Shown here piece after piece: positions 8,414-10,522 of a stretch of 64,000 nt of DNA. The stretch comes from Escherichia coli. GTDB lineage: Bacteria; Pseudomonadota; Gammaproteobacteria; Enterobacterales; Enterobacteriaceae. Made by a program: the position numbers and the translations under genes. Every line of letters begins with the position of its first letter. Positions within the stretch are counted from its first letter, which is position 1. The stretch lies in assembly GCF_002854065.1 (NCBI RefSeq), contig NZ_CP024147.1; one strand, 5' to 3'. The notes beneath the pieces are model-generated. The model was not told the origin of the DNA, searched no databases, and worked only from the letters and a program-made list of their open reading frames with translations.

Positions 8414-9652
8414 ATGAAAGCATTGACTTATCACGGCCCACATCACGTTCAGGTAGAAAATGTTCCCGATCCGGGCATTGAACAGGCAGATGATATTATT
8501 CTGCGTATTACGGCAACGGCGATCTGTGGCTCTGACCTCCATCTTTATCGAGGCAAAATACCCCAGGTTAAACATGGCGATATTTTTGGTCATGAATTTA
8601 TGGGGGAAGTAGTTGAAACCGGGAAGGACGTAAAAAATTTGCAAAAAGGCGACCGGGTGGTAATTCCGTTCGTCATTGCTTGTGGCGACTGTTTTTTCTG
8701 TCGAATGCAGCAATATGCCGCCTGCGAAAATACCAATGCGGGTAAAGGCGCTGCGCTCAATAAAAAACAGATACCTGCTCCCGCGGCATTGTTTGGTTAT
8801 AGTCACCTGTATGGTGGCGTTCCTGGCGGGCAGGCGGAATATGTCCGCGTCCCTAAAGGGAATGTGGGGCCGTTTAAAGTACCGCCTTTGCTTTCAGATG
8901 ATAAAGCGCTTTTCCTTTCTGATATTCTGCCAACGGCATGGCAGGCAGCAAAAAATGCGCAGATCCAACAAGGTTCAAGCGTTGCAGTCTATGGTGCCGG
9001 TCCTGTGGGATTGTTGACAATCGCCTGTGCACGGTTGCTCGGTGCGGAACAGATTTTTGTTGTTGATCATCATCCCTACCGCTTGCGTTTCGCCGCCGAC
9101 CGCTACGGCGCGATCCCGATTAATTTTGATGAAGATAGCGATCCGGCACAGTCAATTATTGAACAAACGGCAGGTCACCGTGGCGTGGATGCAGTAATAG
9201 ACGCCGTCGGTTTTGAAGCGAAAGGCAGCACCACGGAAACGGTGCTGACTAACCTGAAACTGGAGGGCAGCAGCGGTAAAGCGTTGCGCCAGTGTATTGC
9301 GGCGGTCAGGCGTGGCGGCATTGTTAGCGTACCGGGCGTCTACGCTGGATTTATTCACGGTTTCCTGTTTGGCGACGCCTTTGATAAAGGGTTGACGTTT
9401 AAAATGGGACAGACCCACGTTCACGCATGGCTGGGAGAATTATTACCGTTAATTGAGAAAGGATTACTGAAACCAGAAGAAATTGTTACCCACTATATGC
9501 CGTTTGAAGAGGCCGCCCGGGGATATGAGATTTTCGAAAAACGTGAAGAGGAGTGCCGTAAGGTGATTCTGGTACCCGGTGCACAAAGCGCAGAGGCGGC
9601 GCAGAAGGCGGTTTCAGGTCTGGTGAATGCGATGCCGGGGGGAACAATATGA
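8414..9652 (+). CDS. ybdR: Zn-dependent alcohol-dehydrogenase-family oxidoreductase
   Basis: 412-aa ORF with the [12 protein letters not shown] zinc-ADH signature and a GAGPVG NAD-binding motif. Confidence 0.9.
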
Positions 9653-9655
9653 TCG

Positions 9656-9745
9656 TCAGGAGTGGTTTTCGAGGTAAAGGACAGCCATGACGATAATCGC
9701 CGCCATAATCAGAAATCCTATCAGGATGTAAAATGCTTCTGCCAT
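9656..9745 (-). CDS. Candidate small single-TM membrane protein (29 aa, MAEAFYILIGFLIMAAIIVMAVLYLENHS)
   Basis: ATG at 9745 to TGA at 9656-9658; almost entirely hydrophobic core of 24 residues; weak GGGA Shine-Dalgarno about 8 nt upstream; no homology check possible here. Confidence 0.3.
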   Translation of the reverse strand: MAEAFYILIGFLIMAAIIVMAVLYLENHS

Positions 9746-9882
9746 GGTTATTCCCACAAACGAAACGGAATAATTTTGCAGCAAAAGTGAACAGTGAGAA
9801 CCAGGAAAAATTGCTGATTTTGCGTAAAGAGGATGCGAGTGCATCCTCTGGGCAAAGCGAGTTATCGCTTGTGCAGATGGGA

Positions 9883-10293
9883 TTAAAGCAGGTAGTCGCC
9901 AGCAGCTTCTGGCTGGTATTCGAGTTCCAGCACTTCAAGGTGGGTTGCAACGCCGCCCGGAAGTTCCCAGTGAATGGAATCGCCAACGCGCAGTCCCAGC
10001 AGTGCGGCACCTACCGGAGCCATAACGGAAAGCTGAGTATTGCTATCGGTCATTTTTGCCGGATACACCAGCGTGCGCACACGCACTTCGCCATCGCTAA
10101 GATTGCGGAATTTAACCCGGCTGTTCATTGTCACCACGTCGTGTGGCATCTCTTCTGGCGAACACATTTGGGCGCGATCCAACTCTGCGTTTAACGCGTC
10201 GGCGATTGGCAAACCAGCATAGGCGGGTTGCTCCAGCAGAATATCGATGCGTTCGGCATCCAGGTCGTTAATGATGATAGTTGGTCTGGACAT
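9883..10293 (-). CDS. rnk: Regulator of nucleoside diphosphate kinase (GreA/GreB-like)
   Basis: 136-aa ORF matching Rnk. Confidence 0.92.
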
Positions 10294-10341
10294 TTTTACT
10301 CCATGTCGTCGGTACTGCGAGTGTCGCAGATAAACATACCC

Positions 10342-10377
10342 AAAAGAAAACCCTCACCGTCAGGCGGCGAGGGTTTA
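10342..10377 (-). terminator. Rho-independent terminator downstream of rna
   Basis: Hairpin AACCCTC...GAGGGTT followed by a T-rich tract on the minus strand. Confidence 0.5.
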
Positions 10378-10522
10378 ACTCACATGATGATACTGACTGT
10401 TGCTCACTCTTTGAAGTGATTTGCGTCACATTCAGGGAATTCCTCAATGCAGCGCATTATGTATAAATCTTAATCGCCTTGGTTTATGGAAGACGAATTA
10501 GCGTGTTTTGTAAATCAGAGGA

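Follow-up and report, generated by a model that had tools for sequence, protein, structure and literature searches.

yldA, an annotated small membrane protein gene between rnk and ybdR of Escherichia coli, and its paralogy to yoaI

Background

Does the 29-codon open reading frame (ORF) between ybdR and rnk on the Escherichia coli chromosome encode a protein and, if so, of what kind? The question was raised by a stretch of 64,000 nucleotides from E. coli (NCBI RefSeq assembly GCF_002854065.1, contig NZ_CP024147.1), which is referred to throughout as the window. An earlier note, made from the sequence alone, described the frame as an unannotated hydrophobic ORF of a kind seen in small membrane proteins and type I toxin-like peptides, and added that it could equally be a chance ORF. 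The minus-strand frame at 9656-9745 is yldA, a gene that has been known, named, annotated and detected since 2018. Our best overall explanation of the locus, in which we have high confidence, is that this known gene encodes a single-pass inner-membrane protein that is a paralog of YoaI and that, we infer, docks onto a membrane partner.

Results

Identity of the ORF

Re-reading of the sequence confirmed the coordinates, strand and product that had been reported for the ORF. It runs from an ATG at 9745-9743 to a TGA at 9658-9656 on the minus strand and specifies the 29-amino acid (aa) peptide MAEAFYILIGFLIMAAIIVMAVLYLENHS. Its placement was likewise as described. The ATG lies 137 nt past the rnk stop codon on the strand that the two genes share, and the yldA stop codon is separated from the end of the convergent ybdR coding sequence (CDS) by a gap of 3 nt (9653-9655). 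The frame is open further 5′, to an ATG at 9844 that falls within a terminator-like hairpin and would give a product of 62 aa. This upstream-extended version is not conserved, whereas the 29-codon start is, being ATG in 35 of the 35 orthologs described below. The peptide is extremely hydrophobic: its best 19-residue Kyte-Doolittle window scores 2.97, and all of the 256 other ATG-initiated ORFs of 25-50 aa that the window contains stay below 2.6.

The supposition that the frame had been missed by annotation does not hold. The gene has been designated yldA/b4734 since 2018 and is present in the K-12 reference NC_000913.3 and in RefSeq annotation of E. coli generally. In NC_000913.3, positions 643330-643419 are annotated as yldA (b4734, YP_009518757.1), and the peptide is identical. 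When the region was compared by megablast with 5,426 complete E. coli genomes and full-length matches were sampled across the whole ranking, 19 of the 20 sampled carried the label “yldA: small membrane protein YldA” (WP_000796528.1); the twentieth was called a hypothetical protein. The peptide, which is the type member, also matches its own NCBIfam family, NF041476, over residues 1-29 of 29 (57.9 bits; cut-off 45) and the Pfam family PF23689, “YldA-like” (73.6 bits; cut-off 27).

The protein itself has been detected. In VanOrsdel et al. 2018 (PMC6001520), Table 1 lists YldA among the small proteins detected, with the identical sequence, its MG1655 coordinates and the flanking genes ybdR and rnk. 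Detection, as given there, was by a chromosomal sequential peptide affinity (SPA) tag and immunoblotting of cells grown in lysogeny broth to exponential and stationary phase. Epitope tagging, which had been proposed as a check on the ORF, was thus already in print. The reading of the frame as a small single-pass membrane protein is backed by this published detection and by the comparative analysis that follows.

Conservation of the reading frame

Six-frame translations of the rnk loci of 80 Enterobacteriaceae species, together with two E. coli reference loci (82 loci in all), were searched for homologs of YldA. A homolog was found in 35 of the 82. The genera that carry yldA are Escherichia (including E. 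albertii), several Citrobacter, many Enterobacter, Lelliottia, Leclercia, Phytobacter and Pseudenterobacter, and the gene also occurs in one Kosakonia and in some metagenome-assembled genomes. All 35 homologs lie on the rnk strand, start with ATG and have exactly 29 codons, and the distance from the rnk stop codon is 126-147 nt except in two cases, at 230 and 310 nt. The gene was found only 3′ of rnk, in loci that were themselves retrieved around rnk.

Substitution patterns among the 35 orthologs point to selection on the encoded peptide. By pairwise Nei-Gojobori comparison, the proportion of synonymous differences (pS) in the yldA frame was 0.61 and that of nonsynonymous differences (pN) was 0.23, giving a pN/pS of 0.37; the other five frames gave 1.22, 1.33, 1.11, 0.55 and 1.62. 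At the first, second and third codon positions, entropy was 0.66, 0.48 and 1.18, respectively. Stop codons interrupt the +1 frame in 32 and the +2 frame in 26 of the 35 orthologs. Six residues (M1, E3, A21, V22, L25 and E26) are invariant and five more (I7, A16, V19, L23 and Y24) are nearly so, in the consensus MsEiLaITLxFLIxxAIIVxAVLYLERHW. These comparisons indicate that the yldA frame is under purifying selection in the Enterobacteriaceae. Loss of the frame in related genomes, which had been named as an outcome that would speak against a gene, was not what we saw, as the frame is kept across genera.

When 1.84 billion representative proteins were searched with a YldA profile, 44 matched at E ≤ 1e-3. 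Thirty-seven of these were retrieved, and all are YldA-like, many of them terminally extended or truncated, except for one, an ortholog of YoaI from Cedecea. YoaI of the E. coli type was not among the 44 matches. A tblastn search of a plasmid collection gave a single match, to a 517-kb Enterobacter record, which is not evidence of mobility.

Relation to YoaI

Beyond its own family, YldA matches one family only, “small membrane protein YoaI” (NCBIfam NF041475). The E value is 8.7e-5 for the YldA encoded in the window (K-12 allele) and 4e-7 for a second E. coli allele (B2 allele; see below). Residues 3-29 of YldA are colinear with positions 8-34 of the 34 positions of the model, so that the match extends to both C-termini. 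All 34 distinct YldA sequences matched NF041475 at E ≤ 0.01, the best at 1.2e-8, and none of ten control sequences (three sequences shuffled throughout, six in which the transmembrane core was shuffled between unchanged termini, and one reversed sequence) matched it even at E ≤ 10. In the reciprocal direction, a hidden Markov model (HMM) of the YldA orthologs scored E. coli YoaI at 18.9 bits, a score equalled by one of 5,000 core shuffles.

The same HMM scored a 45-aa protein of Cedecea davisae (P0033; …MNDPAFFDTLCITAVFLVIASALVMSVLYLERRW) at 41.1 bits, which none of 5,000 shuffles equalled. This is the Cedecea protein met in the profile search, where its E value was 2.3e-5, and its UniRef name is YoaI. 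Its gene is flanked by a DUF441 (yeaL-like) gene and, abutting it in convergent orientation, a tRNA_edit (yeaK-like) gene, with yeaH- and yeaG-like genes adjoining, an arrangement that is that of the E. coli yoaI locus. The protein ends in SVLYLERRW, resembling YldA, and this positional ortholog of YoaI, with its YldA-like C-terminus, bridges the two families.

YoaI of E. coli (b1788, NF041475, 34 aa) shares with YldA a single transmembrane helix, an acidic flank on the N-terminal side and a tail of the form L/I-E-R. The two align without gaps, residues 3-27 of YldA corresponding to residues 8-32 of YoaI, such that E8, S26-V27 and E31 of YoaI fall opposite E3, A21-V22 and E26 of YldA. Ser26, Val27 and Glu31 are reported to be invariant among 57 YoaI orthologs, Glu31 lying in the cytoplasmic tail (bioRxiv 10.1101/2024.09.13.612970). 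Of these positions, V22 and E26 are invariant in YldA, and the serine is replaced by the invariant A21. YoaI differs from YldA in having five extra N-terminal residues (MNDQM) and in its locus, which is yeaK-yeaL for YoaI and rnk-ybdR/uspG for YldA. Against the YoaI model, YldA scores 22.5 bits (K-12) or 30 bits (B2); since both scores are under the 45-bit equivalog cut-off and the locus is another one, YldA is not itself a YoaI. The sequence comparisons instead indicate that YldA and YoaI are paralogs. In the literature that we searched, the two proteins were named together only in a gene list.

In E. coli and in Cedecea, yoaI and yeaK (or its yeaK-like counterpart) are arranged tail to tail with 0 nt between their stop codons. 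The spacing between yldA and ybdR is 3 nt, so that each of the two small genes abuts a convergent stop codon. This likeness may be coincidence, or the two gene pairs may terminate transcription in a common way.

Two alleles in E. coli

The K-12-type arrangement, which combines ybdR with the allele of the window, was found in 3,600 complete E. coli genomes. Another 1,816-1,818 genomes, which are without ybdR, carry the other yldA, encoding MSEALGITAFYIFIAAIIVAAVLYLEQRW and likewise annotated as yldA (WP_001287361.1); they include Nissle 1917 and strains of the Seattle 1946/ATCC 25922 type. Together, the two alleles account for about 5,418 of the 5,426 genomes. The two peptides are identical at 15 of 29 positions (52%). 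Between the haplotypes, divergence runs from window position 9821 to 8211, a segment of 1,611 bp in the K-12 type versus 277 bp in the other (L002 4080-4356), with flanks that are 99% identical on the rnk side and 92.6% identical on the uspG side. As each allele type is also present in Citrobacter, the split is either ancient or has been moved by recombination.

The B2-type YldA (L002 4161-4250) scores 22.9 bits against PF23689, under the 27-bit cut-off, and is accepted by NF041476 at 59 bits. PF23689 is also recorded as matching the positional YoaI ortholog of Cedecea, and no Pfam family exists for E. coli YoaI; the boundaries of the YldA and YoaI families in Pfam do not track orthology.

We also observed a 67-aa ORF (P0001) that joins codons 1-19 of B2-type yldA to the gene and upstream region of the K-12 type. 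It was seen on one 4-kb metagenome scaffold only (ERZ28624427, L086 2703-2906). Its interpretation as a recombination intermediate was rejected, as this single scaffold is likely an assembly chimera of two E. coli strains that occurred together.

Presence, absence and deletion

The interval between rnk and uspG takes four forms. It can be empty (Kluyvera, most Kosakonia, the C. freundii group and Trabulsiella), or it can contain yldA alone, yldA with a convergent ybdR (as in the window), or ybdR alone (Salmonella arizonae and diarizonae, E. hormaechei, E. cloacae and Silvania). Thus yldA occurs with and without ybdR, ybdR likewise occurs with and without yldA, and ybdR is not functionally required for yldA. 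Loci of the E. cloacae complex with deletions of yldA are listed in Table 1. In E. hormaechei hoffmannii, the upstream region is kept through the Shine-Dalgarno sequence and exactly the CDS is gone. In E. cloacae DSM 26481, only the last ~10 codons of yldA remain (…AAVLSLKRHR).

Expression signals and flanking elements

The Shine-Dalgarno sequence had been called weak. That is roughly true of the GGGAA of K-12, although a purine-rich element (GGGGA, GGGA or GGA) is there in most of the 35 orthologs, 5-10 nt before the ATG. The K-12 GGGAA falls in a stem in the minimum free energy (MFE) fold; this pairing is not conserved in Enterobacter, and we make no claim for it.

A hairpin of 9 bp occupies part of the rnk-yldA interval; the terminator scan passed over it on account of its having fewer than five T residues. 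The core of the stem, GAGGATGC/GCATCCTC, is unchanged across genera in 55 of the 82 loci while the loop varies, so that the element is unusually conserved. Because 21 of those 55 loci are without yldA, the hairpin belongs to rnk rather than to yldA, and it is probably the rnk terminator or a stabiliser of the rnk 3′ end. The U-tract that follows is short (2-3 T), which suggests that transcription could leak from rnk into yldA. A second hairpin lies near 9866-9851, 3′ of rnk.

Position 9822 is where identity to the B2-type haplotype stops, and the 76-nt region between that point and the ATG presumably carries the promoter and the 5′ untranslated region (UTR) of yldA. It holds only short conserved patches (TTAATC/TTATTC…GTTT), about 25-45 nt before the ATG. 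Two sequences picked by eye as −10 candidates, TTCTCA-17-TGcAAAATT and the TTAATC/TTATTC patch, were unconvincing and were dropped, and no convincing similarity to a Pho box or PhoP box was seen. The gene would be transcribed from a weak promoter of its own or by polymerase reading through the leaky terminator of rnk. Within the CDS, there is a promoter-like TTTACA-16-GATTAT in the sense direction (9705-9732, minus strand), as well as a terminator-like hairpin at 9708-9685 inside the coding frame; both are probably due to chance.

As the yldA and ybdR stop codons are 3 nt apart, the two transcripts must overlap, and ExcludonFinder lists ybdR-yldA among 165 convergent excludons on the basis of overlap in RNA-Seq data (PMC12288877). 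In addition, yldA is among the genes upregulated in anaerobic cells treated with sodium fluoride (NaF), a study that also reports upregulation of envelope- and osmotic-stress genes (PMC10100675).

Table 1 Positions of yldA, its neighbors and related loci. Positions are those of the window unless a locus identifier precedes them
Feature	Positions	Strand	Basis
yldA CDS, 29 codons + TGA	9656..9745	-	ORF, RefSeq, SPA-tag publication, NF041476/PF23689, pN/pS 0.37
Shine-Dalgarno-like GGGAA, 5 nt before yldA ATG	9751..9755	-	sequence reading; function inferred
yldA upstream region, K-12-type haplotype	9746..9821	-	identity to B2-type haplotype ends at 9822
9-bp hairpin AGAGGATGC-ACTC-GCATCCTCT then TT, between rnk and yldA	9828..9849	-	MFE and centroid folds
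ybdR, zinc-dependent alcohol dehydrogenase; convergent neighbor, 3′ end abuts yldA	8414..9652	+	ORF list, annotation
rnk, nucleoside diphosphate kinase regulator; neighbor 5′ of yldA	9883..10293	-	ORF list, annotation
E. cloacae complex loci with yldA deletions	L033 3409-3530, L040 3409-3562, L034, L046		
E. coli yoaI, yeaK	L083 8079-8183, 7575-8078		
Cedecea yoaI, yeaK-like	L085 4001-4138, 4139-4642		

Further upstream, the 5′ region of rnk contains the known cis-regulatory rnk_leader (Rfam RF01771; 10339-10447, minus strand; 124.9 bits), whose terminator-like stem at 10376-10348 was also called by the terminator scan.

Discussion

A possible mode of action

YoaI resides in the inner membrane, binds the sensor kinase EnvZ and increases EnvZ-OmpR output (Vellappan et al., bioRxiv 10.1101/2024.09.13.612970; Sci Signal 2025). 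Its E31A and E31Q substitutions abolish EnvZ binding and activation and leave membrane localization unaffected (bioRxiv 10.1101/2024.09.13.612970). Control by PhoB, Mg2+-dependent accumulation and EnvZ binding have been shown for YoaI alone. By extension, YldA would span the inner membrane once, with its acidic N-terminus (M-x-E) in the periplasm and its C-terminal tail in the cytoplasm, as proposed for YoaI. That tail is L-E-R-H-W in most species and L-E-N-H-S in K-12, and most orthologs have the basic residues Arg27/His28. The helix may pack on a larger inner-membrane protein and present Glu26 at the cytoplasmic interface, thereby tuning the activity of the partner, which would most plausibly be a sensor histidine kinase, EnvZ or another. 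Our best guess is therefore that YldA crosses the inner membrane once and modulates a sensor kinase or some other membrane protein; the idea of a kinase arises because YldA is paralogous to YoaI, whose Glu31 aligns with the invariant Glu26. A more specific version, in which YldA is a second member of the YoaI-type sensor-kinase connectors, acting via Glu26 and with alleles that differ in partner affinity or specificity, is put forward tentatively, and we think it rather less probable than its negation.

Other small proteins offer a comparison by analogy only, as MgrB (47 aa), SafA and MzrA show no sequence similarity to YldA and are longer than it. Like YldA, they are small inner-membrane proteins, and in the pairs MgrB-PhoQ, SafA-PhoQ and MzrA-EnvZ they are thought to bind a larger membrane protein (bioRxiv 10.1101/2024.09.13.612970, PMC12648545); lengths of 65 aa for a PhoQ activator and of 127 aa for MzrA are on record (bioRxiv 10.1101/2024.09.13.612970). 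No related solved structure was found for YldA.

Several points weigh against this account of YldA. Paralogy to YoaI is the one line of argument behind a kinase-modulating mechanism, and small membrane proteins that are paralogs may differ in their partners. The K-12 allele has Asn27 instead of the usual Arg and Ser29 instead of Trp, and it is without any Lys or Arg, so that a positive-inside argument for its topology is weak in this strain. The main text and one supplement of Vellappan et al. do not mention YldA (bioRxiv 10.1101/2024.09.13.612970), nor is it one of the 13 small proteins of VanOrsdel et al. that were seen in a tetracycline ribosome-profiling screen (PMC6001520). The promoter scan gave no convincing sigma-70 promoter upstream of yldA. 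Finally, the rnk loci of Salmonella (subsp. arizonae and diarizonae), Kluyvera and most Kosakonia lack the gene, and independent deletions have removed it in several Enterobacter (E. cloacae complex) lineages. From these deletions and absences it follows that the role of YldA is dispensable; yldA is under purifying selection where present, yet dispensable.

Alternative explanations

An RNA-level role would hold that what matters is the transcription or translation of yldA, as an excludon-type antisense regulator of ybdR or as an element of the rnk 3′ UTR. The overlapping, excludon-listed transcripts of yldA and ybdR are what such a role would predict, and so is the constant position of yldA, always about 130-150 nt (up to 310) past rnk and behind a hairpin with a short U-tract. 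What is conserved, however, is the amino acid sequence, with six invariant residues while pS, at 0.61, is near saturation, and the paralog YoaI acts as a protein (bioRxiv 10.1101/2024.09.13.612970). Moreover, because many genomes that lack ybdR keep an intact yldA, the overlap with ybdR is not its reason for existing. We consider an RNA-level role in place of the peptide very unlikely; a regulatory side-effect on ybdR in K-12-type strains, additional to the role of the peptide, is possible.

A type I toxin, here a membrane-depolarizing peptide silenced by an antisense RNA that might be the 3′ end of the ybdR transcript, seems to us just as improbable. The resemblance that had prompted the comparison is real. 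YldA has the size and hydrophobicity of Ibs-, Ldr-, ShoB- and TisB-type peptides and shares with the type I toxins (Ibs, Ldr, ShoB, TisB, Hok) a short, very hydrophobic single helix, a convergent transcript overlaps it in K-12 (PMC12288877), and overexpression of YoaI delays growth (bioRxiv 10.1101/2024.09.13.612970). Unlike those toxins, yldA is a syntenic, chromosomal single-copy gene (median of one place per genome) with no gene repeats and no antisense small RNA (sRNA). It is not carried on plasmids or mobile elements, the 517-kb record being the sole match. YldA matched no toxin, phage or defense family in NCBIfam, Pfam, PADLOC or PHROGs, its only detectable relative being YoaI. No Rfam match other than the rnk leader was found in 9300-10500, and hence no antisense sRNA family opposite yldA, and the promoter scan found no promoter-like site on the plus strand there. 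The 3′ end of ybdR is the only possible antisense transcript, but ybdR is missing from 19 of 36 yldA-bearing loci and from a third of E. coli genomes, in which yldA is intact. YldA also accumulates detectably in ordinary rich-medium cultures (VanOrsdel et al., PMC6001520), unlike silenced toxins.

That the hydrophobic frame is a product of intergenic or antisense composition with no functional protein, which the earlier note had weighed equally with a gene, is scarcely credible: the ORF is short, its K-12 Shine-Dalgarno sequence is weak, no sigma-70 promoter was called upstream and 45 of the 80 species lack the gene at the rnk locus, but a chance ORF is refuted by the tagged protein on the published immunoblot (PMC6001520), by 35 orthologs of identical length, start codon and frame kept across genera, by the selection evident from pN/pS and from the stop codons in the +1 and +2 frames, and by conservation of the peptide with or without ybdR opposite.

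Conclusions

The ORF between ybdR and rnk is the known gene yldA, and its paralogy to YoaI gives a concrete and cheaply testable idea of what YldA does, an advance of modest value. The by-products of the analysis are modest leads as well: the paralogy with its functional glutamate, two deep alleles and repeated clean deletions. The alleles divide E. coli at about 2:1 and constitute a natural experiment on the within-species diversification of small-protein regulators. If YldA is indeed a connector of the YoaI type, it would add an input to two-component signaling, and the K-12-type protein (…LENHS) and the B2-type protein (…LEQRW) would differ in partner preference, a difference that would contrast commensal-type strains with strains of the B2/extraintestinal pathogenic E. 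coli (ExPEC) type.

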